A stretch of DNA of 64,000 nucleotides from Candidatus Methanomethylicia archaeon (GCA_029259155.1 JAPDJI010000001.1:57377-121376); one strand, 5' to 3'; positions 24,133 to 61,097 are shown, numbered from the stretch's first letter. Numbers and translations: made by a program. The notes: generated by a model not told the origin, from the letters alone.

Positions 24133-24208
24133 GTCTCATAAAACAAGTTTTTTATAGCTCGGTAAAAACCTTTACTTCCAGTAATATAACTGGAGGCCTC
24201 AGTCAATC

Positions 24209-27200
24209 TTGCGGTCTAGGCCAATTAGAGCAAGGAGGGGTATCTCTCCTATCATCGCAACCGTTCTTCTCATAACTATCGGCGTAGCAGCGGCAGCAGC
24301 TGTCTATACTTGGGCTCCTACAACCCTTTCTCCCTTAACGAGGCCTGAAGCGGCTGAGGAGTACCTTGAGAGGATCTCGATTGTCGAAGTGATCGTTAGC
24401 GAAAGTAACTTTACTGTGTTTTTCATGAATATAGGTGACATACCTGTTGAAGTGAATGCTATCTATGTTATTGACCCTGAGACGGATGTTCCCATGAAGG
24501 CCTACACCTTCAACCCTGTCGAAGCTCTCCCTGGCTATCTTGTGAACATAACGCTTCCTCTCCAAGAGGAAGACTCAGCTTTCATCAACTCGGAAAGAAC
24601 TGTAACCTTTAAGCTCACAACTACCTTGGGAACGGCCGCAACGCGTACTTTGACACCCATGTACAGCGAGCTTATAACATATCCTTACATTGTTTACCCT
24701 TCTTCGTACAATTTAATCCATGGCACATATGTAGGTGGCACGCTGCCCGATAGTGTCAGGTGGATCGACGGTAACTACTTCTCAATAGCCTCGGAGCCTA
24801 CTTCGACCGACACTGTTACTTCTCACCCTTCAAGTTATGCTCTTCTAAATGAAACTTCCCTAATAGGAGGAGATGTCGAAGACCTTTCCGCTAACGACGC
24901 TGAATACATGGTGTTTGAGAGTTACAGGGAAATCTCTGAAGTAGATTACCATCCTTCAAGCTATGAAACCCTTGGAGGCACCTCTCATGTAGCGGGAGGA
25001 GTTGAAAATTTGGTAGATAGCGATGATGACTATATGGTGTTCGAGAGTTATCCTTCCATGTACTCGGTAAGAGCCTTTACGGCTTATCGAAGTGATACAG
25101 GCAGTGGTAGCGATTACCCTAAAGTTAGGTGGTGGAATGGTACAGGGTGGGAAGCGGAAGAGGAGCTAATTAGTGCCGGGACCATCTATTGGGTGCGTGT
25201 AGCGTCTAACCCTAGTGAAGACGAGAAAATCGTCGCCGCTATGACGTGGTCTGCTCCCACTTCATCCTTATACGCCTATGTTTGGAATGGTACAAATTGG
25301 CAATCCACTTTGATAGCTCAAGGCTTGGAAGGAAGCACTTACCGGACAAGGTGCTTCGATGTAGCCTATGAACAATCTAGCGGAGAAGCGTTGATAGTCT
25401 ATGCTAAATTATCCTCTTACTCCAGCCAAGACTTTGCCGACCGCATCTGGAATGGTAATAGCTGGAGCGAAGAAAACTGGGTGGACGATCCCGATATAAC
25501 GATCACACGTAAAATATACTGGATGCATCTTGCCTCTAAGCTTGGAAGCAATGAAATAGGATTAATCTACGTCTACTATGACCAAGCTTCTCATGAAAGC
25601 TATGTGAGGGCATGTATTTGGAATGGTAGTGCATGGGGGAACTGGCAGACAATTTCTGGTAGTGGCGGGATATCTTATAACCCGTTAACAGAGATCTGTG
25701 GACTAGCTTATGAGTCACAGTCAAAGGACCTCGTAGCTGCCTCAATATACTACCAGAGCCAGTATCAAATAATTACTTATGAATGGACAGGCTCTTCTTG
25801 GGTATATAGGGGCGTTCACGACCCAAACCCAAACGCTGATGGTGACATACGATGGATCATGTTGAAGCCTGACCCCTCATCCGACAGGGTGATGTTAATG
25901 TGCTCTGATAGCTCATCAGATCTCTCAACTTCGCTGTGGACGGGGACCTCATGGTCTACGGGCGACAATATTAGGCACGATACACAGATAGAAACATATA
26001 GTAGGAGATGCTTTGATGGAGACTGGGAGCCTAGTGATAGCCGCTTCCTACTTGTTTAGGGGCATAGCAAGTACGACGGGTTCTACTATAAGGTATGGAC
26101 GACCTCAGGTTGGAGTAGCCTCAATACCTACAAACCTTCAGGAGTAACAGACCTACAATGGGTCAGGGCAGAGGGTTGTCCGTTGAGTGAAGGAGACGTA
26201 AGGGTTATGGTTGAGGTGATGGATGACAGACACGACATAACCGCAGCGACCTGGAATGGCTCACAGTTCACATCCGTAGAAGAGTTGACTGCGTCGTCGC
26301 TACGAGATTATGAGTGTTTCGACTTGTGTTTCGAAGCCTTTAATTCACCTATAAAACAAACTGTTGAACTTGAGTTTACAGGAAGTAGCGACTCAGAGTT
26401 ATGGTCATCACTGAGTTGGGGTGTTGAGATAGGATTGAATATAGACTATGCTAATGTGCAGCTTCAACTTTACGATTACGACAGTGAGAGCTATCCCTCT
26501 TCAGGCGACGGTTTCCAGGAGTTTACTGCTTATAGTGATGACACGGAGCACTTTCAGGACGTTTTAAGTAACTTTGATCGTTTTAGGGCTGACGATGGTT
26601 CATGGAAGATGAAGGTGAAGGTTACTAAGTTCAGCAGAAGTTCCTTCAGAGTTAGGCTTGACTTAGTCTCGTATAATAGATGTTACGATGTGTATAAGGC
26701 TGAAGTGGAGTTTACAGGATCAGTAGATGTAGCTGACTATGAGTGGGTGAACATTACATGGAAGCTCGATCTCTCCTTTAACGTCTCAGGTGTTACCACG
26801 ACTTTACGACTTTATAACTACGAGGACGGGACTTACGCCTCCTCCGGGGACGGCTTTGATTCATTTACCGCTAGCTCAGCGGGAGTTGATTATACACGCG
26901 TAAATAATGTCACAACAGATCCTGAAAGATTTAGGTCAAACGTTGGTGGATGGAAGGTTAAAGTTAGTGCCTCGATCCTTAATACCCCATCTCAAACCTA
27001 CCCCTTCACCATGAATATTGACCTTGTTGAGTACGAACCTAGCTACTACTCTGAGCAAGGCCTTGACGTAAGCTTTAACTTCACCGACGTAAATCCACCC
27101 TACGATCCTGAAAACTATAAGTTTACGGTGACCCTCAGTAGTACACGTAGCATTGAGTTATCTTTCTACTTCTGGAATTATACTGAGGGTGGTTGGAGCC

Positions 27201-27367
27201 TTCTAGGCAGTTATGTTTGGGATGGATCAGGAAGTATTAGCTTCACCGTAAACGCCACGCAGTGTGTAGAAGGAGGAATAGCAAAGCTCAGGATAGTTGG
27301 CTCAAGGAGTGGCTCAAATTTTCAGCTAAACATCGATAGGCTTAGATTACTAGCTTTACAAAGCTAA
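24209..27367 (+). pseudogene. Giant pilin-tipped adhesin (about 1052 codons) split by one in-frame TAG at 26057-26059
   Basis: RRG|ISPII prepilin signal; track ORFs 24209-26059 and 26183-27367 share a frame and 26060-26182 is open. Confidence 0.75.
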
Positions 27368-27609
27368 CTTTTCTTCTTTATGACTTCTTTGCTGCCTAGA
27401 GCTTACATATGATCGTGGCCTTCTTGGTTAGGGTGTCAGTTGAGCATTGCTGGCTTGTTTTTCGATGATTACCAATAGGGTTGCAGCTATGACTATCGCT
27501 ACTAGGGCTAGGTGTTCTATGAGCATGGTGAGATGGGTACTGGTAGCCTCGACGTGGTGAGTAAGCCGCAGGTTAGGGGGGTGATGGAAGCGTTACGTGG
27601 ATCGCTCTC

Positions 27610-28650
27610 TCAGCTAGCTAGGGGTGGAACAGCAGCCCATAAAAGAACCCTAAGCTCCTCCACGTCCCCCTCTACTTGATTGAGGGCCTCTTCAGCCTCC
27701 TTCATGAACTCCCTCAAGATATGGAGGGTCCTATCTATTCCTCCGCTTTTCTCAGCAAGCTCTAATATCATTTCAAGCTCTTCTAAGGTCAACTCCTTCT
27801 TGGTCAATAAATCGTATAACTTTTTTCCATGTCTCTTAGACTTAAGCGTATAGTAGAGTGGTAGTGGAAGGCTTTCGTGCTTGACCCTTGATTTCAACTC
27901 AACTTTGTAGTTTATGAGGTCTTCTAGGTCATCGCGTAATATAGCTATCGCGCCGAGTTTTCTACCGAATGTTCCAAGGGCGTCTACCTGCTTGTCGCTA
28001 CCTCCTCCTATTAAGGCCCCCACTCTTGCGTAGGCTTCCACGTCCGCCGCTTTCATCTCAACGACCTTCAAGTAGGCTTCCGGCGTAACCTTTAGGTTAC
28101 CAATGAACCTTAGCTCACAAGCTTCAGCATTTCCCAGCTCGAAAATTAAATCTAAGACCTTCTCGACCTCAGCTTCAGGTATTTTCAGCTCTCTTAGAGC
28201 AGAGGCCAGCATCCATAACCCCTTAATTAAAAGGGCATCTCCTAAGAGAAGAGTTACGTTCACCCCGTATCGTCCAAGAATCGTTCTACGACCTCTAGCC
28301 CCCTTTATGTAAGACCTATCAATGATATCGTCGTGTAGGTCGAAAGCCCCACTAATTAGTATAAGTGGCGCGGCCACTGAAGCGACATTTTCTCTTCTTC
28401 CCCCTATAGCTTTACACGACAGCGAGATTATCGCAGGCCTTGTGTAATCTCTCCACTTCTTGATAAAATCCATTAACGCTCTCCTAACCTCGGCAGACTC
28501 TATCTTCCAGCTTCTTGCAACTCTTCCAGCTTCCTCAAGTGCTCTTCCACCCTCCTCCATAACAATGGAGCGTGCTCTCTCTACGATCTCATTAAACCCT
28601 CTCAACTGACATCGCCATAAGACATAATCCCTGCGAGTAAAATATATCAT
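27610..28650 (-). CDS. Atypical polyprenyl synthetase/trans-prenyltransferase family protein; start possibly TTG 28605
   Basis: LHDDIID (FARM), LLLGDALL and LRDDLED (SARM) present; GGKR, RRG, GQxxD and KT motifs altered. Confidence 0.8.
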   Translation of the reverse strand: MIYFTRRDYVLWRCQLRGFNEIVERARSIVMEEGGRALEEAGRVARSWKIESAEVRRALMDFIKKWRDYTRPAIISLSCKAIGGRRENVASVAAPLILISGAFDLHDDIIDRSYIKGARGRRTILGRYGVNVTLLLGDALLIKGLWMLASALRELKIPEAEVEKVLDLIFELGNAEACELRFIGNLKVTPEAYLKVVEMKAADVEAYARVGALIGGGSDKQVDALGTFGRKLGAIAILRDDLEDLINYKVELKSRVKHESLPLPLYYTLKSKRHGKKLYDLLTKKELTLEELEMILELAEKSGGIDRTLHILREFMKEAEEALNQVEGDVEELRVLLWAAVPPLAS

Positions 28651-28696
28651 ATGGAGGAGTAAAGGTTACAAGCTCTGAAAAAGGAGGTTTAAACAG

Positions 28697-29674
28697 TTGG
28701 CTGCTATACCCCCTGATGCCTCCATCGCCGTTCTAAAGTCTCTAAGCCAAGAGGAGATTAATTTTCTCCTCGCGGCGGTGGAGGAAGAGGGGGGTACACT
28801 TAGACCTCACTTTGACTTTACTAAAGACCTTCACTTTCCACAAATTGAAGGGAAGATGGTAAGTGAGCTTAAACACGTTATTGAGAACTTGATAGCTAAA
28901 GGGCTCATAGACCAAAAGCTGTCGGATAGGTTGATAGCTTGTCCAGAATGTGGTTCTCACTTAATACTCACATACTATACTTGCCCGTTCTGTGGTAGCC
29001 GAAACGTGCTAAAGGAAAATCTACACGAACATTTCATCTGTGGAGCTATAAGTAGGGAGAGTACAGTTAAACAAGGCGATAAGCTGGTTTGCCCTGTATG
29101 TAAGAGGGAATTTAAGGCGTTAGGCAAGGATTACTCCATCGTAGGCGCCTGGTTTGAATGTGAGGACTGCAAAAAGACCTTTGAAGCTCCTGTAATAATG
29201 CATAAATGCTTGAATTGCGGCCTAGAGTTTGATGTAAGAGGAGCTAGATATGACCACGTGGTTGCCTATTCTCCTACACCTCTTGGATTAGAGGTTGCCA
29301 ATAGGCTGAAGTTGATGAAGGCTATAAGCGAGGTCGGGGCTTCATCGGGCTTTGAGGTAGAGTGGTTTGGAACCATGAAGGGTGTATCGGGCATAATCCA
29401 TGAATTTTCGCTTCTAATGAAGAAACAAGACCTCACCATAGCCGTGGATATAGCCTCTAACGGCAATCGAGGTCTAATTGGGCTTACTGCTACGTTAGCC
29501 AAAGTATACGACACGCCCACGGTTAAACCTGTCGTAGCGATTATCCCTAAAGCTCCTGCTGAGACTGCAGCACTAGCTGCCAGGTATAATATAGTGGTTG
29601 TGGAGGGGGACACCGCTGAGGTCATTAAGGAGCGCTTCGCTGATGTATTGAAGAGGTGGACAGGTAGCTCTTAA
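28697..29674 (+). CDS. Multi-Zn-ribbon TackOD1-like protein with C-terminal endonuclease-like fold
   Basis: CPECGS, CPFCGS, HFICG, CPVC, CEDC and CLNC, then GVSGIIHEFS. Confidence 0.68.
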   Translation: MAAIPPDASIAVLKSLSQEEINFLLAAVEEEGGTLRPHFDFTKDLHFPQIEGKMVSELKHVIENLIAKGLIDQKLSDRLIACPECGSHLILTYYTCPFCGSRNVLKENLHEHFICGAISRESTVKQGDKLVCPVCKREFKALGKDYSIVGAWFECEDCKKTFEAPVIMHKCLNCGLEFDVRGARYDHVVAYSPTPLGLEVANRLKLMKAISEVGASSGFEVEWFGTMKGVSGIIHEFSLLMKKQDLTIAVDIASNGNRGLIGLTATLAKVYDTPTVKPVVAIIPKAPAETAALAARYNIVVVEGDTAEVIKERFADVLKRWTGSS

Positions 29675-29727
29675 CCGCATAAACGCATATATCCTGCTTG
29701 AAGTCCTCCTATAGGACGGTGGTGTGC

Positions 29728-30717
29728 ATGGTAAAGTTCGGGATAGAGCTAGTTCCTGACAGGCCTGTGAGCAAAGTAGTGGAGTTGGCTGTTGCAGCTG
29801 AAGAGAAGGGCTTAGACTACGTATGGGTCACTGACCACTACAATAACCGCAATGTCTACATAACGTTAACCTTGATGGCAACGTCCACCAAGAAGATAAT
29901 GCTCGGGACAGGTGTAACTAACCCCTACGTCATCCACCCTGTGTGGACCGCATCTGCCATAGCAACTCTCGATGAGATAAGCGGAGGACGAGCAATACTA
30001 GGGATTGGTGCGGGTGATAGAGCTACCTTAGAGGGCGTAGGCATAAAATGGGAAAAACCTTTGACCTCGGTTAAGGAAGCCGTAGAGATTATGAGGAAGC
30101 TACTTGCTGGCGAGAAGATTAAGTTAGAGGGTGAAGCTTTCATGGTGGCTAAAGCTAGATTAAACTATAAACCTTCGAGAGTCCCGCCCATTTACGTAGG
30201 AGCTCAAGGACCTAAGATGCTAGAGGTGGCTGGCATGGTGGGCGACGGCGTCCTCATCAACGCTTCGAATCCCAAAGACTTTGAGGATGCTGTCAAATAT
30301 ATTAAGGCAGGGGCGGAGAAGGCTGGGAAGGACCCCTCAAAGATAGACGTAGTAGCTTATACCTGCTTCTCCGTTGATGAGGACTCTGCAGCAGCCAAGG
30401 AAGCGGCCAAGCCTATAGTGGCTTTCATAGTGGCTGGCTCACCTAGTCAAGTACTTTCCAAATACGGAATAACTGATGAAGCCGCTAATAAGGTGAGGGA
30501 AGCTATAGGGAAAGGAGATATTAAGGGAGCTATTGGCCTCGTGGACGATACCATGCTAAACGCCTTCTCGATCGCTGGTACCCCCAGTGAAGTTACCTCC
30601 AAGATAAATGAACTACTAAAGGCTGGCGTAACTCAAGTGGTCATGGGCTCTCCTCTCGGACCCAAGAAAAAGGCCGCCATAGACTTAATGAGCGGGATAG
30701 CCAGCAAATTCAAATAA
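29728..30717 (+). CDS. mer: F420-dependent methylene-H4MPT reductase
   Basis: KFGIELVP, WVTDHYNNRN, GVTNPY, GAQGPKML, LINAS and GVTQVVMGSPLGP motifs. Confidence 0.92.
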   Translation: MVKFGIELVPDRPVSKVVELAVAAEEKGLDYVWVTDHYNNRNVYITLTLMATSTKKIMLGTGVTNPYVIHPVWTASAIATLDEISGGRAILGIGAGDRATLEGVGIKWEKPLTSVKEAVEIMRKLLAGEKIKLEGEAFMVAKARLNYKPSRVPPIYVGAQGPKMLEVAGMVGDGVLINASNPKDFEDAVKYIKAGAEKAGKDPSKIDVVAYTCFSVDEDSAAAKEAAKPIVAFIVAGSPSQVLSKYGITDEAANKVREAIGKGDIKGAIGLVDDTMLNAFSIAGTPSEVTSKINELLKAGVTQVVMGSPLGPKKKAAIDLMSGIASKFK

Positions 30718-30749
30718 TCGCGTCCTTTTTTTGTTGATGGTGGCCCTTT

Positions 30750-31280
30750 TTGGGCCTACCAAGCAAGCTTAAGGCTGGCGCATTCACGGTTATAGCGGTA
30801 GTAGTTCTCGTAGTCCTAGCTACGACTTTATCGAACTTTATATCTTCGCCCTGGTACGTTGTAGAATCAAGGAGCATGGAACCAGTTCTCCACGTAGGCG
30901 ACCTTGTAATGGCGGTTCCTGTTAGTCCTGAAGAAATCAGTGCTGGGCCTCAAGGAGACATTATTATCTACCAGCCTCCGGTAGGTAAACCCATCATTCA
31001 CCGGGTTATCGATAAAGCATACATAGATGGAACATGGTTTTTCTTAACTAAGGGGGATAACAACCTCTTTCCTGATCAAGATCCTTACAACCCATATACC
31101 TGGGTCAGTGAGGATCACGTGATAGCTAAAATGCTGTTCTCGATCCCCCTAGTAGGTTTCCCTTTCCTAGAATCTGTGAAGCCCTTCACAGAAACCGTAC
31201 TGATAGTGGCGTTGGCTTACTTGATTTTTACCTCGTTATCTCCTTCGAGGAGCAGGAGCGCTAAGAAGAGTAGAAGATGA
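30750..31280 (+). CDS. Signal peptidase I (Sec11-type)
   Basis: SRSMEP..HVGD, IIHRV and TKGDNN motifs. Confidence 0.9.
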   Translation: MGLPSKLKAGAFTVIAVVVLVVLATTLSNFISSPWYVVESRSMEPVLHVGDLVMAVPVSPEEISAGPQGDIIIYQPPVGKPIIHRVIDKAYIDGTWFFLTKGDNNLFPDQDPYNPYTWVSEDHVIAKMLFSIPLVGFPFLESVKPFTETVLIVALAYLIFTSLSPSRSRSAKKSRR

Positions 31281-31331
31281 AAAATTTATTAAAGGAGATG
31301 ATCATTCATCCACTTAAGAGGGCTGGATGAA

Positions 31332-31886
31332 TTGTTCTCTAAGCCTAAGTACCGTATAGAGAACGTGGTAGCTTCCGTCACTCTCGATCAGACTCTAGAC
31401 CTTAACGTGATAGCTAGCGTAATACCTACCGCTGAGTATAACCCTGAACAGTTCCCTGGCTTAATATACAGGATTGATAGGCCTAAGACAGCCACGCTCA
31501 TCTTTAGCTCAGGCAAAATGGTCTGTACAGGAGCTAAAAGCGAGAAAGAGGTTTACAAGGCGGTGAAGAAAATCATTCAGGAGCTTAAGTCACATAAAAT
31601 CGTGATTCTAAAGGAACCGAAGATACAGATACAGAACATAGTTGCCTCCGCTAATCTTAATGCGGAGATAAACCTTGAGAAGGCAGCTTACTTGCTGGAG
31701 GACGCTATGTATGAACCTGAACAGTTCCCTGGCTTAATATACAGGATGGAGGATCTAGGCGTCGTTCTCCTCCTCTTTAGCTCAGGCAAAATGGTCTGTA
31801 CAGGAGCTAAAAAGGAGGACGATGTCAAGACCGCGGTCAATAGAATATATGAGAAGCTCAAGGAATTAGGCGTGCTTTACATCTAG
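31332..31886 (+). CDS. tbp: TATA-box binding protein
   Basis: Two ENVVAS/QNIVAS...[10 protein letters not shown]...[12 protein letters not shown] repeats. Confidence 0.97.
31443..31812 (+). repeat. Perfect intragenic direct repeats in tbp: 32 bp (31443/31716) and 39 bp (31501/31774), period 273
   Basis: CCTGAACAGTTCCCTGGCTTAATATACAGGAT and TCTTTAGCTCAGGCAAAATGGTCTGTACAGGAGCTAAAA each occur twice. Confidence 0.9.
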
Positions 31887-32030
31887 CTACATCTTTCTGC
31901 CGGCTTCTCTTTGATGTAGAGAGATATGGATCGCTACTCTCTGGTATTCTTCAGATAGTCCGAGTATATTCTTAATTTAGTAAAATCCGGCTTTTTGTCG
32001 TGGTTGACCGATAATTTAACGGTGAATAAA

Positions 32031-32177
32031 TTGACCTTTAAGGAGTCTTTCAAGGGCTTCTGCCATTTCTGCGGCAGAGATATTGTTGAGAAGATACATT
32101 GACTAGAACATCAAGGCAAAGCTCTAGTGTTCTGTAGTGAAAAATGTCTTGAAGATTACTTAAAGCAACAGAGCTAG
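32031..32177 (+). pseudogene. TRASH/YHS-like metal-binding mini-protein with internal TGA (32100-32102)
   Basis: GGTGA RBS plus TTG; MTFKESFKGFCHFCGRDIVEKIH*LEHQGKALVFCSEKCLEDYLKQQS. Confidence 0.65.
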
Positions 32178-32189
32178 TCCTTTTTTCTC

Positions 32190-33113
32190 TTAAACTCTTC
32201 CTGTGATTAAAGATAAGAGCGCCATCCTAACAGGTACACCGAAGCGAGCTTGTTTAAAGTAAGCTGCGTGTTTAGTGGCATCGATCTCTACAGGTAGCTC
32301 TTCCCTTCTAGGCAGGGGGTGTAATATGATAAGGGTATCTTTTACTCCTCTCAGCATAGACGTGGTTAATTTATAAATTCCCTTTACCTTTATGTATTCT
32401 TCCTTGGAGGGAAATCTTTCCTGTTGAATCCTAGTCATGTAGAGGACGTCTGCTTCCCTCAACGCTTCCTCGATGTTTGAGGTTTCTTTCATCCTCAGCC
32501 CTCTACCCACCAGCAATTCTTCAATTTCTGATCGAAGCTTCAGCTGAGGTGGAGATGCTAAGTATACCTCGACGTCGTTATACAATGTTAGTGCTAAAAG
32601 CAATGAGTTTACGGTCCTAGCATACTTGAGGTCTGCCATGAAAGCCACCTTGATACCATCAATTTTTCCCAATAGTCTCCAGATCGTGTAGAGGTCTACA
32701 AGAGCTTGGGTTGGGTGTTCTCTTGATCCATCACCTCCATTGATGACCGGGGCTTCAGCCACCTCAGCTGCCAGCTTAGCTGTGCCTTCAGAAGGGTGTC
32801 TTATCACCATGACATCGCAGTAGCCGTCGATGGTTCTTATGGTATCCTCGAAGCTTTCACCTTTCATCAACGAAGTGCTTTCAACCCCAGAGAACCCGAT
32901 GATAGAGCCTCCTAGCCTGAGCATTGCAGCTTCAAAGCTAAGTCTAGTTCTTGTGCTTGGTTCAAAGAAAAGCGTGGCTAAGATCGTGCCCTTTAAGAGA
33001 TTTCCGAAGTCACTTGGCCGCTCCTCCATAGAACGCGCCACGGTGAAAATTAAATCGAGCTCTTTTCTCGAAAGGTCTAGAATAGAAACTAGGTCTCTGC
33101 CTGTTAATGACAT
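32190..33113 (-). CDS. pyrB: Aspartate carbamoyltransferase catalytic subunit
   Basis: FFEPSTRTRLSF, HPTQAL, RIQQER and HPLPR motifs. Confidence 0.96.
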   Translation of the reverse strand: MSLTGRDLVSILDLSRKELDLIFTVARSMEERPSDFGNLLKGTILATLFFEPSTRTRLSFEAAMLRLGGSIIGFSGVESTSLMKGESFEDTIRTIDGYCDVMVIRHPSEGTAKLAAEVAEAPVINGGDGSREHPTQALVDLYTIWRLLGKIDGIKVAFMADLKYARTVNSLLLALTLYNDVEVYLASPPQLKLRSEIEELLVGRGLRMKETSNIEEALREADVLYMTRIQQERFPSKEEYIKVKGIYKLTTSMLRGVKDTLIILHPLPRREELPVEIDATKHAAYFKQARFGVPVRMALLSLITGRV

Positions 33114-53651: not shown

Positions 53652-55514
53652 ATGAAGCTGCTCCTGATACACGCTGATCACCTTGATTACAAGGTCACTG
53701 GAGAAGCTATGAAGAACCCTGAACCTATACCTAAGGGGGAGGGGGAGGCTAGTTTCAATGAATGCCTTGTAGTTTTCTGCGCGGTGGAAACGGTCGATGA
53801 GACAAATCCTTCCGCGTCGGTTGAGACAGGAATTAACGTGGTGGAGGATGTAGCTAAAAGGCTAGGGGTTTCACTAGTCGTGCTCTACCCTTATGCTCAC
53901 TTATCGAGCAACTTGGCTAAACCTACAGTAGCTTTAGAGATCTTGAGGTGCATGGAAGATGAACTTGGTAGGAAAGGCTTTAAGGTACATAGAGCTCCCT
54001 TTGGTTGGTACAAGGCTTTCACCCTTAGCTGTAAGGGCCATCCACTCAGCGAACTTTCAAGGTCTGTAGAGCCTGTAGCGCCCAGGGACCTAAAAGAAGT
54101 GGTAGAAGTTAAGCCAAGTAGGTTTATTATCTTGGATCCCTCCGGTAAGGAGTTCACCTTAGATCCTTCAAGGCTAGGAGAGCTTAAGATACTAGATGAG
54201 CATCCTCTACTTAAACAGCTGATAATGAATGAGCTCGGGTTGAAGGAAGGAAGTCGAGGGCCTCCTCCTCACGTTAAGCTCATGGTAAAGCTAGGCTTAG
54301 TGGATTATGAACCCTCATCTGACGTGGGGCATTTCAGGTTTTACCCTAAAGGTGCTTTACTTAAGGAGCTTCTAGAGGCTTTTGCTGATGACTTGGCAGT
54401 TAGCAGGTTGAAGGCGGTGAAGGTGGAAACCCCGATGATGTATAGGCTGAGTCAACGCGCCATAGCTGAGCAAGCCTCGAAGTTCAGGGAGAGGGATTAT
54501 AGGTTTAAGGTGGGAGGAGAAGAGTTTACGCTTAGGTTTGCAGGCGATTTTGGACTCTTTAGCATGATGAAGGATATATCCTTAAGCTACCGTCATCTTC
54601 CCTTGAGGGTCTATGAACTATCTCAATCGTTTAGGTTAGAGCAGCGAGGTGAGTGTGTTGGGCTTAAAAGGCTCCGCTCCTTCACCATGCCGGATATACA
54701 TTGTTTCTGCCGAGACTTAGCTCAGGGAATGGAGGAGTACCAGCTCCTCTTCCAGCTTTACACTGAGCTAGCTAAGAGCATGGAGGTAGACTTTACCGTA
54801 GCCTTCAGGGCAGCGGAAGATTTCTATAATATACATAAGGACTGGTTTGTTGAGCTCCTTAAAATAGTGGGACAACCAGCCCTCATAGAGCTCCTACCTG
54901 AACGTAAACACTACTGGGTGGTTAAACACGAATACCAGTTCATAGACTCCGTGGGGGGTAACGCTCAGCTATGTACCGTACAGCTAGATATTGAGGACTC
55001 TGAGCGCTATGGTATATATTACGTCGATGAGAAAGGAGAAAAGAAGGGATGCATCATTGTACACAGCTCTATGGGTAGCATAGAGCGATGGATCTATGCT
55101 CTTCTCGAGGAGGCGGTGAGGAAAATGAGGGAAGGCAAACCTCCTATGCTGCCGGTGTGGCTAAGTCCTACCCAAGTTAGGGTCATACCAGTATCTAAGG
55201 AGTATCTTGATCAAGCGCTGAAAGTAGCTGATAAACTTGAATCTGCTAGCTTGAGGGTGGATGTTGACGATAGGGAGGAGAGTGTGGCCAAGAAGGTTAG
55301 AGATGCTGAAACTGAATGGATCCCTTACGTGGTGGTGATAGGTTCAAAGGAAGCTGAGAGCGGGACGTTGACTGTTAGAGTTAGGAGAGATAAGAGCATC
55401 AAGACAATGAAGGCAGAGGAGCTCATAGATGAAGTCACGAAACTAATTGAGGGTAAACCGAAGCTTCCGCTCTATGAACCAAGATTGCTATCGCTTAGGC
55501 CTAAATTCAGTTAG
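53652..55514 (+). CDS. thrS: Threonyl-tRNA synthetase (archaeal type)
   Basis: YPYAHLS, APFGWYK...CKGHPLSELSR, FRLEQRGE and GSIER motifs. Confidence 0.95.
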   Translation: MKLLLIHADHLDYKVTGEAMKNPEPIPKGEGEASFNECLVVFCAVETVDETNPSASVETGINVVEDVAKRLGVSLVVLYPYAHLSSNLAKPTVALEILRCMEDELGRKGFKVHRAPFGWYKAFTLSCKGHPLSELSRSVEPVAPRDLKEVVEVKPSRFIILDPSGKEFTLDPSRLGELKILDEHPLLKQLIMNELGLKEGSRGPPPHVKLMVKLGLVDYEPSSDVGHFRFYPKGALLKELLEAFADDLAVSRLKAVKVETPMMYRLSQRAIAEQASKFRERDYRFKVGGEEFTLRFAGDFGLFSMMKDISLSYRHLPLRVYELSQSFRLEQRGECVGLKRLRSFTMPDIHCFCRDLAQGMEEYQLLFQLYTELAKSMEVDFTVAFRAAEDFYNIHKDWFVELLKIVGQPALIELLPERKHYWVVKHEYQFIDSVGGNAQLCTVQLDIEDSERYGIYYVDEKGEKKGCIIVHSSMGSIERWIYALLEEAVRKMREGKPPMLPVWLSPTQVRVIPVSKEYLDQALKVADKLESASLRVDVDDREESVAKKVRDAETEWIPYVVVIGSKEAESGTLTVRVRRDKSIKTMKAEELIDEVTKLIEGKPKLPLYEPRLLSLRPKFS

Positions 55515-55582
55515 TAGAGGCAAGGCTTCACGAGTTCCTCGCTTACTATCCTAACTTGTTCTATGTCAATATAAAAAGGAGG

Positions 55583-56140
55583 TTATGGCTTTAACACTTC
55601 ATCTATAACTGTGGTGAACCAGTCTAGGCCATAGTGGAAGAGTGGCTTAGCCGCCTTAGGGTTAAAGAGCTTATTTTTAAATACCTCCTCATCAGCGTAG
55701 GCAGCCACCACCTCTCCAATAAACAAGGTGTGATCCCCTGTCTCGACCTGCTTCGCTACCCTACATTCTAAGTGGGCCACGCACTCCTCTATGATGGGAG
55801 GCTTCACTACCTTAGCTTTCCCCGGCGTTAAGCCCGTTACCTTAAACTTGTCTAGATCTCTTCCACTTTTGGAACCTATCTGAAACGCTTGTTTAATTAG
55901 CTCAACAGTAGGGATGTTTATCACGAACTCACCAGTCTCCTCGATCAGGCTATGAGAATAACGCTGTGGAGCGACGCTTATTACAGCCATGGGTGGATTA
56001 AAGGAAGTGGGCATAGACCAGGATAACGTTATTGCATTAACCTTCCTCTCCCTGCCGCTACAAGTTACTATCACTACGTGGCGTGGGTGAAGGAGCCTTG
56101 TGGCAAAGGACAAGGCATCTACTTTCATATACTTCGCCAA
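55583..56140 (-). CDS. Flavin reductase-like (flavoredoxin) protein
   Basis: GEFVINIP, GSKSGR..DKF and LECRV...GDHTLFIGEV motifs. Confidence 0.88.
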   Translation of the reverse strand: MAKYMKVDALSFATRLLHPRHVVIVTCSGRERKVNAITLSWSMPTSFNPPMAVISVAPQRYSHSLIEETGEFVINIPTVELIKQAFQIGSKSGRDLDKFKVTGLTPGKAKVVKPPIIEECVAHLECRVAKQVETGDHTLFIGEVVAAYADEEVFKNKLFNPKAAKPLFHYGLDWFTTVIDEVLKP

Positions 56141-56259
56141 CCTTTGGTTTACACACTACTCTCTTATATCTCTCGGAGTTGATCGAGTGCCTGGATGATT
56201 CACTTAGCTGTCTGTCGTCAACGATCGCTTTTCTTCGACGACGTTTTAATAAACATGCC

Positions 56260-56487
56260 TTATGAAGAGATCAAGGTCATGGTTTTTACCACACCATTGA
56301 TATTTCTTATAGCTGTAACCACGTTGTCTAATTGAGCAATATTGTCTACTTCTACGCGAGCTAATGCATCGTATTCGCCAAAAAGCAGCCTAGCCTCAAC
56401 CACTCCTGGAAGTTTCAGTAACTCGTCTACAATAGATCTCTCCTTCGCCAGCTCGGTCACTATGAGTATAAACGCCACTACACCCAT
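56260..56487 (-). CDS. Lrp/AsnC ligand-binding-domain-only protein
   Basis: LFGEYDALARV...IRNINGVVKTMT. Confidence 0.85.
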   Translation of the reverse strand: MGVVAFILIVTELAKERSIVDELLKLPGVVEARLLFGEYDALARVEVDNIAQLDNVVTAIRNINGVVKTMTLISS

Positions 56488-56494
56488 GCATCCC

Positions 56495-56902
56495 CTACCT
56501 CATTGGTGATAGTAGCTTTATGGGACCATACTCTTCAAGCTCTTTACATATAATGTTTATAGGCTCTTCGTCCTTGCTATTGAACCCCACGATAGCGCAT
56601 CCATCGCTATGCACCCTAACGTAATGATCAAGGTCGAACCTAACGGTGAACTCACCTGCCCCTATAATTACCTTAAAAGGAGTCTTCGCGGCTACTAACT
56701 TCTCAACCAACTTCCACAGTAAGGCCTTATGCTCCTTCTTTAGGGAACGTCTTCCAGCGTATTTCTTGAGGTCCTTTACCTTCAATTTGATCTTAGAGAA
56801 ACCCTTAACCTCCTCAACTTTAACCTCGTCACCTTCAAAGTGTACCTCGAATCCTCTGCCACCATCGAGGAAGCTTTTTACGAGTCCTTTCCAGTCGCTC
56901 AA
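56495..56902 (-). CDS. Hypothetical protein
   Basis: 135-aa ORF with GGTG RBS, co-oriented with the Lrp-domain gene. Confidence 0.55.
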   Translation of the reverse strand: MSDWKGLVKSFLDGGRGFEVHFEGDEVKVEEVKGFSKIKLKVKDLKKYAGRRSLKKEHKALLWKLVEKLVAAKTPFKVIIGAGEFTVRFDLDHYVRVHSDGCAIVGFNSKDEEPINIICKELEEYGPIKLLSPMR

Positions 56903-57101
56903 AGTTTTACACCGATTAAGGAGTTATAACTATCGCCTTATAAAACTCAGGTCCTTAACTGAAACAGAAGCGTCATGGATACACGCTGAGCAAGAAGGAG
57001 CTTGAGAAAAGCCTTGTTAAAAGGTAAGATTTAAAAATGTGGGAAAGAATATTCTCTGACTATTACCCCCCTCATCCCCCTACACATATGAATTTATAAC
57101 C

Positions 57102-57170
57102 TTATGGAAGCCAAAGCCTTACAGGGGTAACAGTCAGACTAGCCCTTAACTCCTTTATCCTGCTGCTCAT
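57102..57170 (-). CDS. Candidate 22-aa peptide MSSRIKELRASLTVTPVRLWLP (ComX-like precursor?)
   Basis: ATG preceded by GGGGGAGG; TTTATA box at 57191-57196 on the minus strand; divergent from the MFS-like gene. Confidence 0.55.
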   Translation of the reverse strand: MSSRIKELRASLTVTPVRLWLP

Positions 57171-57310
57171 TTTCCTCCCCCATTACCTACTATAAACTTC
57201 TCATACAAAAACTTGTCGATTTGTAAAACATAGATACAAAAATGAAAAGAAATTTTTATGATCCTCTGGAACCATGTCTACTGTATCAAGGATGTAACAG
57301 GCGTTAGGGA

Positions 57311-58465
57311 TTGCTTGGACGTAACGGAGCCAAACTTTGGGGCGCTCCTCTTACATGGTATGTTTATGGAGCGTTAGAGGTCTCCTGGGCTTACTCGCTT
57401 ATACATTATATCCGTATTCACACATTAATTTTTGAAGACTCCATGTATACTACTTCTTTGATTGGAGTTTTTACCTGTCTATTCATGATTCTCGGGTCTA
57501 AAATGAAGAACCGCCAGTTGAGAATTGCATGGGATTGGCTAGGCCTCCTAGTACCTCTAACTCTCCTCCTTAAAGATGTTAGCCAAGGGGGCCTACTCAT
57601 ATTCATCCTTTACCTGCTTTTCTTCTCTTTCTGCTTGGGCTTGGGGCTACCTTCAGTTTTATCTGAAGTTATGCAAGCAACGAATTTTGAAAATAGAGGG
57701 AAGGTTTCAGGGCTGCTATGTGTGTTCGCTTTCTCGTCCGTCTTCGCTTTCATGTTGCTAGGTTCTCTCCTACTGGTGGCTTTGATGAAGGCTCTTGCCC
57801 TCGCCACATATCTCTTTAAGGTGAAGTTTGAACAGCTCGTAAAAGTCGATGGTTATCTTAAAGCAGGTCGAAGAGTTACATTATCCTTATTTCTTCTTTG
57901 GCTCCTCTTCTTGCTTATTGATAGCATAGCGTCCATGAACTTAACAGTGTTATTGAATGAGATAGACGTTTTAATCTTACGCTTATTTGTTATTCTTATT
58001 GGCTTACCAGCTCTTCTTGTCTCTGGCTTTCTTTTTGACCTATATGGTAGGAGGCTCTTTATTCTCACGGCTTTCCTCCTCCTAGGCGTTGAGTATGCTT
58101 TAATTAGCCTTGAGCCTTCTTTCATCATATTGTACCCGGTTTTAGATGGGGTATCTTGGGGTTTCCTCACAGTTTTCTTCACGTTAGTCGTATGGTCAGA
58201 TATTTCCCCGCCTGAAGAACGGGAGCTGTATTATGTGCTAGGTCTATCTCCACCATTTCTGGCAAATGCTTTCTCCGAATTATATAGGGTAATAGGGCCT
58301 CGCATTGAATTTTGGCAACTTTTTCCGCTTGTAAGTTTGTTCCTTTTCATGGCTGCTTTAGCTATGTTCTTTATCCCTGAAACCATGCCTGAGGCGGTGT
58401 TGGAGCGTAAACGCATGGAACGTTACATCAAGTCTGCTAAGAGGTTTAAGGAGAGGCGCGTGTAG
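57311..58465 (+). CDS. MFS-fold membrane protein
   Basis: About 11-12 TMs; FENRGKVSG, GFLFDLYGRR (motif A-like) and IPET followed by a charged helical tail. Confidence 0.72.
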   Translation: MLGRNGAKLWGAPLTWYVYGALEVSWAYSLIHYIRIHTLIFEDSMYTTSLIGVFTCLFMILGSKMKNRQLRIAWDWLGLLVPLTLLLKDVSQGGLLIFILYLLFFSFCLGLGLPSVLSEVMQATNFENRGKVSGLLCVFAFSSVFAFMLLGSLLLVALMKALALATYLFKVKFEQLVKVDGYLKAGRRVTLSLFLLWLLFLLIDSIASMNLTVLLNEIDVLILRLFVILIGLPALLVSGFLFDLYGRRLFILTAFLLLGVEYALISLEPSFIILYPVLDGVSWGFLTVFFTLVVWSDISPPEERELYYVLGLSPPFLANAFSELYRVIGPRIEFWQLFPLVSLFLFMAALAMFFIPETMPEAVLERKRMERYIKSAKRFKERRV

Positions 58466-58472
58466 ATAGGGC

Positions 58473-59240
58473 TTATGCCAGTTCAATTCGTTGAACTATA
58501 GACTCTAACTCCTTAGTGAAGGGATGTTCAAGGTTCTCGAGCACATAAATGAGTTTTCTAGACTGTGTAGCTACGTCGCATGAGCAAGGGATTACGCCTA
58601 TCACCTCTTCATTTAAGGTCTCTTTCATTTTCTTAATCATCTCTGCTTTATCTTCCTCGCTCGTGACCCCGATGACTTTATTCACGACTATGGCTACTTT
58701 ACGTTCGAGGAGGCGGTAGAGTTCGGAGAGCATTCTTCTTGTTCCCTCAACGTCAGAATCGTCGGCTGTGAGGACCACTACAGCTACATCGGCCGCAACT
58801 AAGGCATTAATAGATGAGTATAGGTAGCCTGGGCTGGTGTCTATAATACAGCGTTCATAACCTAGCTGGCCTAGCTTCCTTATGAAATCGAGGAGTCTAC
58901 CTAATGCTTCACGCTCCCAGCTTGTAGATTTAGCCATCATTTCCCTTATAGCTTCAGGTGATGGATTTGCGAAGGCTACGTTAAACTTCATTTTCAATTT
59001 TAGCTGCTCTGTTAGGTCTATGAGCGCTTCTTCGGCTTTACACCTACCATCAAGATAGTCGTTAAACCATCGCTTTACGTTTGAGGGGGTGAAGGCTACA
59101 TATAAGGTAGGGGCTCTGAAATCCATGTCTACAAGGCATGTAGGTAGTCCCTTAGTCGCGTAGAGCACTGCTAGGTTTGTCGCTATGAGGCTTTTACCTG
59201 TACCTCCTTTAAATGAATGAACGGTTATCACCTTAACCAA
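58473..59240 (-). CDS. MinD/ParA-family ATPase
   Basis: SFKGGTGKS, VDMD, IIDTSPG and VVNK motifs. Confidence 0.88.
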   Translation of the reverse strand: MVKVITVHSFKGGTGKSLIATNLAVLYATKGLPTCLVDMDFRAPTLYVAFTPSNVKRWFNDYLDGRCKAEEALIDLTEQLKLKMKFNVAFANPSPEAIREMMAKSTSWEREALGRLLDFIRKLGQLGYERCIIDTSPGYLYSSINALVAADVAVVVLTADDSDVEGTRRMLSELYRLLERKVAIVVNKVIGVTSEEDKAEMIKKMKETLNEEVIGVIPCSCDVATQSRKLIYVLENLEHPFTKELESIVQRIELA

Positions 59241-59251
59241 TTAACATCACC

Positions 59252-59617
59252 TCAAGGCTTAACTGTAAACACAACCTTCTTCCCCACCCGCTTCTTCTTT
59301 ATGTATCCCATTCTCACGAGCTGGTTTAGGTAGCCACTTTCAACAGCTCTTTCCCTACCTGTTATCTCAGCTACGTCGTCGGCCGTGCCTTCACCAAGCC
59401 TGTCCAGGGCTATAGCGGTTTTACGTAGATGATCAGGGAGTTTAAGGAGTGATAAGACGTCGAGGGCCCGAGGAGTAACCTCTTCAACCTCCTTCCTGAA
59501 CCTCTCCATCATTTTTCGTTGTTCTTCTGTTATCTCCATAAGCTTAACGTAAATCCTATCTAACCTATCAACCAGAGCCTCTAGCACTTCTATGACTCTC
59601 TTGGAGTCTTCACTCAT
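59252..59617 (-). CDS. Coiled-coil plus winged-HTH transcriptional regulator
   Basis: LPDHLRKT...TADDVAEITGRERAVESGYLNQLVRMGY..K.R.GK. Confidence 0.75.
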   Translation of the reverse strand: MSEDSKRVIEVLEALVDRLDRIYVKLMEITEEQRKMMERFRKEVEEVTPRALDVLSLLKLPDHLRKTAIALDRLGEGTADDVAEITGRERAVESGYLNQLVRMGYIKKKRVGKKVVFTVKP

Positions 59618-59753
59618 CCTTTTTCGCCTTTCTTACTGAGTTACCTGCCTACGGTCTTTTTCCAGGACTTATAGGTCTTATTATTATTTACGCTACTCTA
59701 AGTAAAGTTAAATCGCCCCTCTCAGCTATAACGGCCTTAGTGGTGCCCTCCAG

Positions 59754-61097
59754 ATGTTGGATGTGTTGGTAGTAGGTGCTGGAACGGGAGGCTGCTTAGC
59801 TGCTAGGAGAGCAGCTGAGTTAGGGCTTAAGGTCTTAATTATAGAGCAGAAACAGCTGGCATGTATAGGGGATAAGGTCTGCGGCGATGCTATTGGTAGG
59901 CACCACTTTGAGGATTTAGGTTTAACCCCACCTAGAGGAGAAGAGCTGGTTAATGAGATTAAAGGAATCGAGGTTTACTCTCCTGACAGGTCTACTGTGT
60001 TTAGGGTTGAGAGTGAGAGCCTACATGGCTACATGGTTAACCGAAGAGCTTTCGGGGCAAGATTGTTGAGAGAAGCTTTAGACGCGGGGGCGGAGCTGCT
60101 AGATGCATCGACAGCCCTCGACTTGTTGATTAAGGGTGGATATGCGAAAGGGGTGAAGGTTAGAGACAAGTACGGTGAATTAAAGGAAGTAGAAGCCAAA
60201 GTGGTGGTGGATGCTACAGGCTACCCAGCCACGCTTAGGAGAAGAGTTCCTGCTGATTGGTTAATGGAACCTTCACCACTCGAGGACTATGTGGTATGTC
60301 ATCGTGAGATAAGAAAGCTGAATGAACCTTTAGAGAAGCCTAGTTACTGTAAAATCTACCTGAACCAAGAGGCCTCACCAGGAGGTTACATCTGGGTCTT
60401 TCCTAGAGGTTTTCATGAAGTAAACACTGGGCTGGGCGTACAAGCCGGGAGAGGCCTTAATCCGCGAAGGTTGTTCTATGAACACGTTATCGGCAACCTG
60501 CTTCCCTCCAACTCAACGATTATGCATGCTGGAGGGGGTGTGGTACCTACTCGAAGACCTTTAACAAGCTTGGTGGGCGATGGCTTCTTAGTGGTAGGTG
60601 ACGCGGCTTACCAGGCCAACCCTATCCATGGAGGTGGCATAGGGCCTTCCATGAGAGCCGGAGCCTTGGCGGCTGAGGCTATAGCCGAGGCGCTTGACGC
60701 TGACGATGTCAGCCGGAGAGGACTTTGGAGCTATCCTCTAAAGTATAATACCGTTTACGGCCATAAGCAGGCCTCTCTAGACGCGTTTAGGATCTTTTTG
60801 CAGACGCTCAATAACGATGAATTAAACTGGGGGATGAAAATCCGTCTGATAACTGAACGCGATCTTCTTATGGCTAGCATGGGAGGTGAGCTTAAAGTAA
60901 GATTCACTGATAAAGCATTAAGGCTTCTCCGAGGTATAGGTAAACTGAGGCTCCTTACTAAGCTTAGAATCACCGCGAGGGCCATGAAGAGGCTTAGATA
61001 CCTCTACTTAAATTACCCCAGCCCGGAAGATATTGAAAAATGGAAGGCTGAGGTCGAAAAAGTCTTTGTAGAACTTAAGAGAGGCTTAGCACCTTAA
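59754..61097 (+). CDS. Geranylgeranyl reductase family (DGGGPL reductase-like)
   Basis: [25 protein letters not shown] and GDAA...NPIHGGGI motifs. Confidence 0.87.

Follow-up and report, generated by a model that had tools for sequence, protein, structure and literature searches.

Ribosomally made peptides that carry a lipid on tryptophan, attached by enzymes derived from isoprenyl diphosphate synthases, are known from a handful of bacteria, namely ComX, PalX, StheX and peptides of the chryseoviridin type. [quoted passage not shown] These four have in common a Gln just before the second motif rich in aspartate (SARM) which is proposed to bind the indole NH (PMC13290415; PMC10853753), and for ComQ and StheQ the sources describe a degenerate second motif, i.e., a pseudo-SARM without metal (PMC10853753; bioRxiv 10.64898/2026.08.29.745113). 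The word "archaea" does not occur in the main text of PMC10853753, which names no archaeal member, and a search of the literature found no archaeal ComQ-like system, trans-IDS-like peptide prenylation or prenylated-peptide system. The subject of the present analysis is a candidate for such a system in a 64,000-nucleotide stretch of DNA, called the window in the following, from a Candidatus Methanomethylicia archaeon (GCA_029259155.1, JAPDJI010000001.1:57377-121376). Here, a very short open reading frame (ORF), the micro-ORF, lies divergent from the gene of a membrane protein with the major facilitator superfamily (MFS) fold, and a polyprenyl-synthase-like protein (PSL) is encoded further off. 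The comparisons described below show that the micro-ORF is almost certainly a genuine peptide gene, and that it very probably belongs to a system which also comprises the PSL and the MFS protein. The reading as a whole is that of a leaderless peptide resembling peptides that are made on ribosomes and modified after translation (RiPPs), which is conserved in Methanomethylicia- and Bathyarchaeia-type archaea and serves as substrate of a PSL-MFS pathway, and for this we see about even chances.

The translation of the micro-ORF is MSSRIKELRASLTVTPVRLWLP, 22 residues with Trp third from the C-terminus. The MFS gene is carried by two members of the window's family, and there the corresponding intergenic position encodes, on the same strand, MRRKELKASLSLTPVKLWLPLLPP and MRRSELKASLSLTPVRLWLPIP; in the sister family the same position holds an ORF of 13-17 codons which usually reads MK[STNK]YNPTP[VI]R[LFI]W followed by one to five residues, with MKTYSPTMIRFWH, MKKYQPVAIRLWF, MGKFNVTKMKLWFPW and MRKYNPVVVRTWLP as variants. 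Altogether, an ORF of 13-24 codons ending in P-x-R-Φ-W-x(1-7) is found at this place in 24 genomes of the window's class, where Trp is present in 24/24 copies with one to seven residues after it; three further genomes with fragments of the MFS gene stand outside this count because their contigs end there. In seven genomes the micro-ORF is repeated in tandem, with copy numbers from two to at least three. The encoded peptides are short and basic, and the Arg or Lys two residues before the Trp is nearly invariant. Public records with genes of this cassette are assigned to Methanomethylicus, Methanosuratincola, Methanomethyliaceae and Nezhaarchaeales.

With respect to its coding status, a codon test gave ratios of nonsynonymous to synonymous change (pN/pS) of 0.18 for the window's own family and 0.28 for the sister family, with pS at 0.62-0.64 versus pN at 0.11-0.18 and synonymous sites near saturation. 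Variable sites are distributed over codon positions one, two and three as 3/4/11 (16 codons) and 7/5/11 (12 codons), respectively, and switches between codons of six-fold degenerate residues are seen for Arg (CGA/AGA/AGG/CGT) as well as for Ser (AGT/TCT/TCC). A site of the GGTGA/GGAGG type precedes the start by about 3-16 nt in 16/16 distinct copies with sufficient upstream sequence, a count which leaves out one further copy, in locus L021, with only 9 nt upstream; start and stop are likewise kept in all copies listed with sufficient upstream sequence. In the window itself, the ribosome-binding site that the initial annotation had read in front of the ORF is GGGGGAGG, three nt before the ATG. 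At the DNA level, an exact degenerate pattern for the micro-ORF core matched in 13 of 62 genomes of the class, the reversed-pattern control giving one match. None of the three peptides that reach 20 residues was retrieved by exact look-up in a collection of 15 billion proteins, from which it follows only that gene callers skipped them. The claim of an unannotated 22-residue ORF with Trp at the third position from the end is thus borne out by its conservation in 24 genomes, by the codon test and by the shuffling comparison given below, and the search for a conserved short Trp-terminal ORF beside homologous MFS genes, which had been proposed as a test of the idea, found one.

Expression is indicated by RNA from a relative of the window, locus L005, which carries two tandem micro-ORFs and 78-89% of whose words occur in three RNA-seq metatranscriptomes from one study. 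Over the micro-ORF pair, the summed word depth is 124k-196k in run X1, 27k-56k in X2 and 23k-38k in X3, versus approximately 2.4-3.7k, 0.9-1.6k and 1.0-2.0k, respectively, over the flanking PSL and MFS genes, i.e., the pair is about 10-80 times deeper than its neighbours, and single contigs over unique sequence of the region reach 9k-20k. Because the peak is local, the signal at the micro-ORFs is not DNA carry-over. Within the 3' end of the PSL gene, a unique contig of 72 nt (L005 948-1019) is covered in run X1 about eight times as deeply as the remainder of the gene, and the micro-ORF transcript of this locus may extend into the PSL gene in antisense direction.

What ties the peptide gene to the PSL and the MFS protein is their joint occurrence through changing gene orders. 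Homologues of the MFS protein were found in 15/41 related genomes. The gene directly before the micro-ORF of the sister family encodes a PSL orthologue that is 38-43% identical to the window PSL and has the signature KKW(K/R)DY(S/T)RP, and in another family of the class an orthologue likewise adjoins micro-ORF and MFS gene. When true PSLs are taken as those reaching at least 300 bits with the PSL profile or being fragments at contig ends (ordinary synthases score at most 157 bits), 24 of the 62 class genomes have PSL and MFS gene together, three have the PSL only, one has a fragment of the MFS gene only and 34 have neither, the genomes being relatives and hence not independent samples. Among the three with PSL only, the contig of G046 ends just after the micro-ORF, and in G004, which belongs to the window's order, a micro-ORF encoding MKVKALKAKLGVTPIYFWFP lies 38 nt 5' of the PSL gene on the same strand, with Tyr in place of the Arg and the Trp kept.

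Beyond the class, the MFS family was detected in 54/401 sampled genomes of the phylum and is concentrated in one family (20/25); the named relatives of these carriers are Bathyarchaeia. In the 29 loci of this type, a PSL gene stands immediately 5' of 25/30 MFS genes, so that the atypical polyprenyl synthase which was to be looked for beside MFS homologues is found there as well as in the sister family. The gap between the two genes usually holds an opposite-strand, Lys/Arg-rich ORF ending in P-x-R-x(0-5)-W-x(0-7). An ORF of 8-30 residues matching P.[RK].{0,5}W.{0,7}$ is present in 14/25 gaps on the expected strand and in 0/25 on the other, while 300 shuffles averaged 0.16 with the same pattern and never exceeded 2. 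Three gene orders therefore have the micro-ORF beside the PSL, the two converging in the sister family, the micro-ORF preceding the PSL on one strand in G004 and lying within the PSL-MFS gap in Bathyarchaeia. Synteny of micro-ORF, MFS gene and the genes for a MinD-like ATPase and a winged helix-turn-helix (wHTH) protein extends over all Methanomethylicia-type loci and five of the Bathyarchaeia type; the majority of Bathyarchaeia cassettes have the peptide and no adjoining MinD/wHTH pair. By comparison of these genomes, then, peptide gene, MFS gene and PSL form a conserved trio, from which the PSL of the window's family has moved 28.5 kb off. The partnership with this distant enzyme, which the initial annotation had proposed, thereby gains support from orthologues directly beside the micro-ORF in other lineages.

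The window PSL scores 73.4 bits with PF00348, in comparison to 206.3 and 142.2 bits for the two other polyprenyl synthases of the genome, and none of its 14 NCBIfam matches reaches the cut-off (best, IdsA_Meth with 100.8 bits versus 468). Its model is an all-alpha trans-IDS fold (AlphaFold2 pLDDT 90.1), the top Foldseek matches being trans-IDS with TMq of about 0.8; Foldseek does not set it apart from ordinary synthases. Both the motif rich in aspartate that comes first (FARM) and the SARM are kept in the family as HDDI(I/V)D and (I/V)LRDD(I/L)ED (HDDIID and DDLED in the window), with H106, D107, D108, D111 and D244 invariant across 16 PSL sequences and the second motif of the window protein formed by D240, D241 and D244. 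The enzyme is nonetheless atypical, as had been noted. RGGKR(L/I)RP of the genome's own synthases reads KKWRDYTRP in the window PSL (Lys to Asp, Arg to Tyr), GGKR having become (K)W(K/R)DY throughout the family; FQ or YQ before the second motif in the genome's canonical synthases is replaced by A/V/T-I (A-I-L-R-D-D in the window); and a conserved segment EL.SRI.(K/N)ESLPLP has been gained relative to these synthases. GGKRxRP is the basic motif near the N-terminus of canonical synthases whose residues serve the binding and condensation of isopentenyl diphosphate (IPP). Since the IPP-binding residues are lost, an ordinary synthase role is unlikely, and the motifs suggest that the PSL still ionises a prenyl diphosphate and no longer elongates it with IPP. 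A role as small subunit of a heteromeric prenyl synthase, which came into view as the fold search was topped by the large subunits HepT and HexB, was rejected on size and composition.

The likeness to ComQ/ComX, which belong to the ComQXPA quorum-sensing system of Bacillus, lies in a small precursor with Trp near its C-terminus, at position three from the end in the window peptide and also in ComX168 (PMC13731918), and in an enzyme which keeps the first Asp-rich motif and the trans-IDS fold. The initial annotation's closer parallel with ComQ itself did not hold: the PSL is archaeal, its second Asp-rich motif is intact, it is without the conserved Gln, and its nearest relatives are ordinary archaeal synthases. 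It is not a member of the ComQ family, and if it prenylates Trp, this ability would have arisen independently, as what looks like a separate derivation. Further differences concern the peptide, which in the window type has 13-24 residues and no leader in contrast to ComX-type precursors, which count about 50-60 residues and have their leader cleaved off, and the signalling partners, as an MFS protein, a MinD-like ATPase and a wHTH protein stand in place of the ComP/ComA pair. No histidine kinase was found in the window locus or beside the adjacent enzyme and peptide genes of relatives, where these two are neighbours in contrast to their separation in the window.

PalQ/PalX/PalP of Paenibacillus alvei and StheQ/StheX of Sphaerobacter are similar in that trans-IDS-like prenyltransferases act on a terminal or near-terminal Trp. 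PalQ is also reported to keep the second Asp-rich motif like the PSL (PMC10853753), and its Q197 corresponds to Ile, Val or Thr in the latter; the PalX core DNVRRFFW resembles ...PVRLW of the window in placing basic and hydrophobic residues before the Trp. PalX differs in being an NHLP-type precursor with a cleaved leader, PalQ in requiring a terminal Trp, and the PalQ and StheQ clusters in containing a histidine kinase, unlike that of the window.

Additional genes of the cassettes point in the direction of peptide modification. In the sister family and in one further family, a gene for a polytopic protein lies directly 5' of the PSL gene and often overlaps it, with invariant EExxxR, FxxAH and HWxFN; EExxxR, FxxxH and HxxxN are the motifs of CPBP proteases. 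One of five copies reaches the cut-off of the Rce1-like Pfam model (27.9 bits versus 22.4), weak NCBIfam CPBP matches occur in three of six, and the nearest Atlas clusters carry PF02517 (0.97, 0.96 and 0.94); a PDB profile search with the CPBP-like alignment gave no match at E<=10. Such a CPBP/Rce1-like gene is present in 24/62 class genomes and adjoins the PSL gene in at least 20. This recalls CaaX processing, where a prenyltransferase is followed by an Rce1-type CPBP protease, in that the CPBP/Rce1-like gene is fused into the PSL operon of the sister family and the peptides there end in W-Φ-P-x, resembling a prenylation box with a few removable residues. It differs in that the acceptor would be Trp and not Cys, that the window's genome is without a CPBP gene, and that the PSL is IDS-derived whereas CaaX prenyltransferases are alpha/beta heterodimers. 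Bacterial CPBP proteins also serve in bacteriocin immunity.

In 21/29 loci of the Bathyarchaeia type, a TIGR04084 gene of the radical S-adenosylmethionine (SAM)/SPASM class (307-312 bits, cut-off 225) follows 3' of the MFS gene, a reductase-family gene intervening in 2/21. The next NCBIfam matches of its product are the peptide maturases PapB, nif11-type, SCIFF, DynA and YhhB. Five loci of this type have the MinD/wHTH pair at the same position instead, and a gene of about 110 codons stands 5' of the PSL gene in six, the three scanned matching PadR with 62-67 bits. This mix of a prenyl enzyme, a protein of a prenyl-protease family, a radical SAM protein of the peptide-maturase type, a transporter and regulators has the appearance of a peptide natural-product cluster.

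The MFS-fold protein is modelled with 6 + 6 helices (residues 4-173 and 187-352) and a C-terminal helix at 361-383 (AlphaFold2 pLDDT 82), and all top matches listed by Foldseek against the PDB are MFS transporters (TMq 0.6-0.7), in line with the initial description of a divergent MFS-fold protein with a charged tail. The Pfam scan of the window protein gave no MFS match; the Bathyarchaeia homologue L076:1468-2700 reaches 47.5 bits with MFS_1 (cut-off 33.4). The family conserves PETxP, the tail residues Y372, I373 and K377, and D243-x-x-G-R-R, which we take to be motif-A-like. A grouping with ordinary solute transporters had been put forward as a counter-indication, along with a lack of peptide expression and of a conserved Trp-terminal ORF, and none of the three came out against the idea.

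As had been described, the MFS gene converges on a wHTH-MinD/ParA gene pair, which is supported by Pfam matches and by synteny in relatives. The ATPase exceeds the cut-offs of AAA_31 (58.2 bits), CbiA (55.5 bits) and ParA (43.6 bits) and contains the deviant Walker A motif HSFKGGTGKS (G12, G13, G15 and K16 invariant, K11 in at least 90%) as well as DTSPG. It remains far below the MinD equivalog cut-offs (minD_bact 62.3 versus 212.9 bits, minD_arch 47.5 versus 201.75), and "MinD" is therefore a family label and not a statement of orthology. The 121-residue wHTH protein scores 25.9 bits with TrmB (cut-off 25.6).

Complex models place the tail of the MFS protein on the ATPase, with scores of 0.76, 0.77 and 0.76 in three runs versus 0.02 for the best of three controls, a mark that is reached by 58/80 solved complexes and 2/110 mismatched pairs; the partner has a pLDDT of 84, and 100% of contacts are common to the runs. 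The modelled interface joins MFS residues 366-383 with ATPase residues 106-117, 139-149 and 173-179 at positions conserved in the family, among them the invariant W108, A112, Y141, N145 and A146 of the ATPase. The models support a putative binding of the tail to the MinD-like ATPase. In MinD-MinE, ParA with the N-terminal peptide of ParB, and ArsA-ArsB a deviant-Walker-A ATPase is bound in a way resembling the predicted grip on a short charged helix; the predicted partner would here be the tail of an MFS protein, and the ATPase has an invariant CxC, two features by which the pair differs from these systems. We know of no described arrangement in which such an ATPase has the tail of an MFS protein as its partner.

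Taken together, the product of the 22-codon ORF would be a leaderless precursor and the substrate of a RiPP-like pathway, in which the PSL would ionise a prenyl diphosphate and prenylate the peptide, with the invariant Trp at the third place from its end as the most likely acceptor. For this prenylation of Trp by the PSL, the best single mechanism, the arguments for and against are about equally weighted. In lineages with an Rce1-like CPBP gene in the PSL operon, the residues after the modified Trp might then be trimmed, and in many Bathyarchaeia the radical SAM/SPASM maturase might make a further modification. The MFS protein would export the lipopeptide, or re-import and sense it, its charged C-terminal helix docking, as in the structure model, on the MinD-like ATPase, which together with its wHTH operon partner could couple the state of the transporter to transcription from the divergent promoter with its palindrome.

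A number of observations weigh against this reading. In the window's own genome the PSL is 28.5 kb from the micro-ORF, no second micro-ORF was seen beside it (23001-33000 inspected), and no CPBP gene was detected in this genome, which is 94% complete (no PF02517 and no A5-profile match); G001, a genome of the same family and 98% complete, has a PSL, no MFS gene and, with the queries used, no micro-ORF. By eye, the 29 Bathyarchaeia-type loci comprise 18 with a Trp-containing ORF, six with an ORF lacking Trp (three of these with Phe or Tyr) and five with no ORF, and the search pattern used for the gap ORFs was picked after the data had been seen. The sequences nearest to the PSL (archaeal geranylgeranyl diphosphate (GGPP) synthases) and the nearest folds are those of ordinary synthases, with the Trp prenyltransferase Ord1 no higher than rank 43 in Foldseek; Ile, Val, Thr or Met takes the place of the Gln just before the second motif, and this motif has the full DDxxD of elongating synthases. 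A leaderless precursor of 13-24 residues is unusual for a RiPP. The RNA comes from strandless contigs of a single study and from a relative, the tandem repeat inflates the summed depth at the L005 pair, and the peak could equally arise from a 3' fragment of the PSL mRNA, if stable. Finally, the score of the MFS-MinD model may echo the memory which the modelling program has of MinD-MinE or ParA-ParB peptide complexes.

Possible, though not probable, is that the peptide works unmodified as a small regulator of the MFS/MinD-like/wHTH module, e.g., by acting, as a basic peptide with an Arg, as activator or competitor for the ATPase much as MinE or the ParB N-terminus does, with the PSL in a separate isoprenoid role and a prenyl compound moved by the MFS protein. 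ParA/MinD ATPases are stimulated by short basic peptides, and the peptides in question are short and basic with the nearly invariant Arg/Lys; the G004 copy, however, has lost this Arg and retained the Trp. That the peptide gene of the window's family is grouped with the MFS, MinD and wHTH genes and lies apart from the PSL, that a short charged helix is, by prediction, taken up by the ATPase, and that G001 retains a PSL without the other parts would all be in keeping with such a regulator. Yet the micro-ORF stays beside the PSL through three gene orders, most Bathyarchaeia cassettes do without an adjoining MinD/wHTH pair and have the radical SAM/SPASM gene instead, and a gene of the CAAX-protease family is fused into the PSL operon. 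Genes of the geranylgeranyl-reductase family beside or inside some cassettes would fit a separate isoprenoid role, against which stands the loss of the IPP-binding residues from the PSL.

Quite unlikely, in turn, is a modification of another kind, i.e., a cross-link or oxidation by the radical SAM/SPASM protein or a flavoprotein leading to a cofactor or cyclophane, with the PSL acting on another residue or only binding or chaperoning the peptide. The maturase-like gene 3' of the MFS gene in 21/29 Bathyarchaeia-type loci speaks for it, as do the 6/24 candidate peptides of Bathyarchaeia without Trp and the missing indole-reading Gln of the PSL; against it, each of the 24 class genomes with the micro-ORF has the Trp, both metal/diphosphate motifs of the PSL are under selection, and a radical SAM gene is missing from the window's cassette, the only TIGR04084 member of the genome lying elsewhere. 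That there is no peptide at all and the conserved sequence is a non-coding RNA, a promoter element or a chance ORF can hardly be right, as the shortness of the ORF, the strandless RNA contigs and the inverted repeats of the promoter region are set against third-position changes at near-saturated synonymous sites with the amino acids kept, a Shine-Dalgarno site, start and stop that are conserved, an Rfam scan of 55000-60500 without a match at E<=1, an ARAGORN scan of the window without a tRNA, and 14 matching gap ORFs versus a shuffle mean of 0.16.

If the prenylated peptide is the correct reading, it would probably be a lipid-tagged peptide of a kind so far known only from bacteria, encoded by a gene below the size limit of gene callers which is kept in 24 genomes of a single archaeal class and, probably, also in many Bathyarchaeia. 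The enzyme tied to it seems to have reinvented peptide prenylation from an ancestor resembling archaeal GGPP synthases, and archaea, including methyl-reducing methanogens now open to cultivation, would gain a lipopeptide with its own exporter and an unusual relay of transporter, ATPase and repressor. A signalling role of the peptide is rather doubtful. Unlikely as it is in its full form, one can picture a "WaaX" pathway of methanogenic and other anaerobic archaea (Methanomethylicia, Bathyarchaeia), in which an IDS-derived transferase of independent origin prenylates the leaderless micro-peptide on Trp and the Rce1-like protein trims it behind the lipid-bearing Trp, similar to CaaX processing in eukaryotes, before the product is exported and read as a diffusible cell-cell signal via the MFS protein, the MinD-like ATPase held by its tail and a wHTH regulator of the peptide promoter; if true, this would be the first archaeal peptide quorum-sensing circuit, and one with no two-component system. 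Peptide signalling or antagonism in archaea would become directly testable, and synteny together with codon statistics can recover ORFs of 13-24 codons. The features of the locus are collected in Table 1.

Table 1. Features of the window, with positions counted from its first nucleotide
Feature	Position	Strand	Remarks
Micro-ORF, 22 codons + stop	57102..57170	-	Candidate leaderless precursor peptide, core TPVRLWLP
Shine-Dalgarno site GGGGGAGG	57174..57181	-	3 nt 5' of micro-ORF ATG
Candidate promoter/operator block	57204..57238	-	Alignment of the window and three related genomes, inverted-repeat scan
Inverted repeat TGTA-N9-TACA	57222-57238	-	
AATCGACAAG element	within 57204..57238	-	Between inverted repeat and T-run
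T-run TTTTTGTA	57204-57211	-	Candidate B recognition element (BRE)/TATA
PSL, 346 aa	27610..28650	-	Candidate peptide prenyltransferase; PF00348 match, orthologues adjoin micro-ORF elsewhere
MFS-fold membrane protein, 384 aa	57311..58465	+	PETxP and charged C-terminal helix; divergent from micro-ORF, 140 nt away
Charged C-terminal helix of MFS protein, residues 361-383	58391-58459	+	
MinD/ParA-type ATPase, 255 aa	58473..59240	-	Invariant CxC; MFS gene converges on it
wHTH protein, 121 aa	59252..59617	-	N-terminal segment of ~70 residues + TrmB-type wHTH; upstream of ATPase, same operon
Geranylgeranyl-reductase-family flavoprotein	59754..61097	+	Divergent from wHTH; GG-red-SF 209 bits versus cut-off 158.8

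In the promoter region of the micro-ORF, four related genomes share a block at -68..-34 from the ATG, in which TGTA-N9-TACA is followed by CGACA(A/G)G and then by a run of T. The TATA box that had been assigned to TTTATAG (about -26..-19 from the ATG) was not upheld, as it is not conserved and is too near the ATG to leave the ribosome-binding site in the transcript. In the sister family, inverted repeats with arms of 8-9 bp lie between a GAAAAC-TTTTTATG element and the ribosome site, and the repeats upstream of the micro-ORFs are plausible operators of the wHTH protein.

The geranylgeranyl-reductase-family gene next to the wHTH gene recurs as a neighbour in the related locus L042, and a gene of this family lies inside the Bathyarchaeia cassettes L079 and L048. 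It is possibly an accessory gene of the cassette, the link being a weak one.

Some further observations concern the individual proteins. In the ATPase, C219 and C221 form a P-C-x-C-(D/E)-V that is invariant in the window protein and all 12 aligned orthologues, and the protein aligns end to end with the NUBPL/Mrp family of iron-transfer P-loop proteins (PF10609, 43.6 bits); the dimer interface may hold a metal or Fe-S site. A second, diverged MFS-like gene (G000:C1:22717-23853, locus L017) scores 157 bits with the family profile and has the tail ..ETLP..KYIEWAKRK, and no micro-ORF, MinD or wHTH gene was seen beside it. Divergent from the window PSL, a gene at 28697-29674 (+) encodes a protein of 325 residues that has several CxxC pairs and matches nothing in Pfam or NCBIfam, and which was not seen beside the PSL in the related genomes examined. 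In loci L106 (2024-3277, genome G002) and L107 (G003) from the sister genus of the window's family, the gene of an ordinary MFS_1 transporter (176 bits) overlaps the start of the PSL gene, a second and different PSL-MFS pairing. The one TIGR04084 gene of the genome (AF0577-type, 462 bits; G000:C4:67387-68445, locus L120) is outside the cassette and adjoins genes which, from sequence alone, read as hypC and hypD of hydrogenase maturation.

Downstream of the micro-ORF, the window's family has a gene of 135 codons, as opposed to the 3' end of the convergent PSL gene in the sister family. A role of the micro-ORF as leader peptide or upstream ORF was rejected on these grounds, the downstream genes differing between the families and the divergent upstream MFS gene being the constant neighbour. 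The 135-residue protein (56495-56902, -) has no Pfam or NCBIfam match, and is followed on the same strand by a 75-residue stand-alone Lrp/AsnC ligand-binding domain (56260-56487, -) and a flavin reductase gene (55583-56140), an order that is kept in the related loci L002, L004 and L042. In the sister family, a protein of about 300 residues with three CBS domains precedes the CPBP-PSL genes in loci L041, L044-L046, L108, L110 and L111, and in the same loci a gene for myo-inositol-1-phosphate synthase comes after the wHTH gene.

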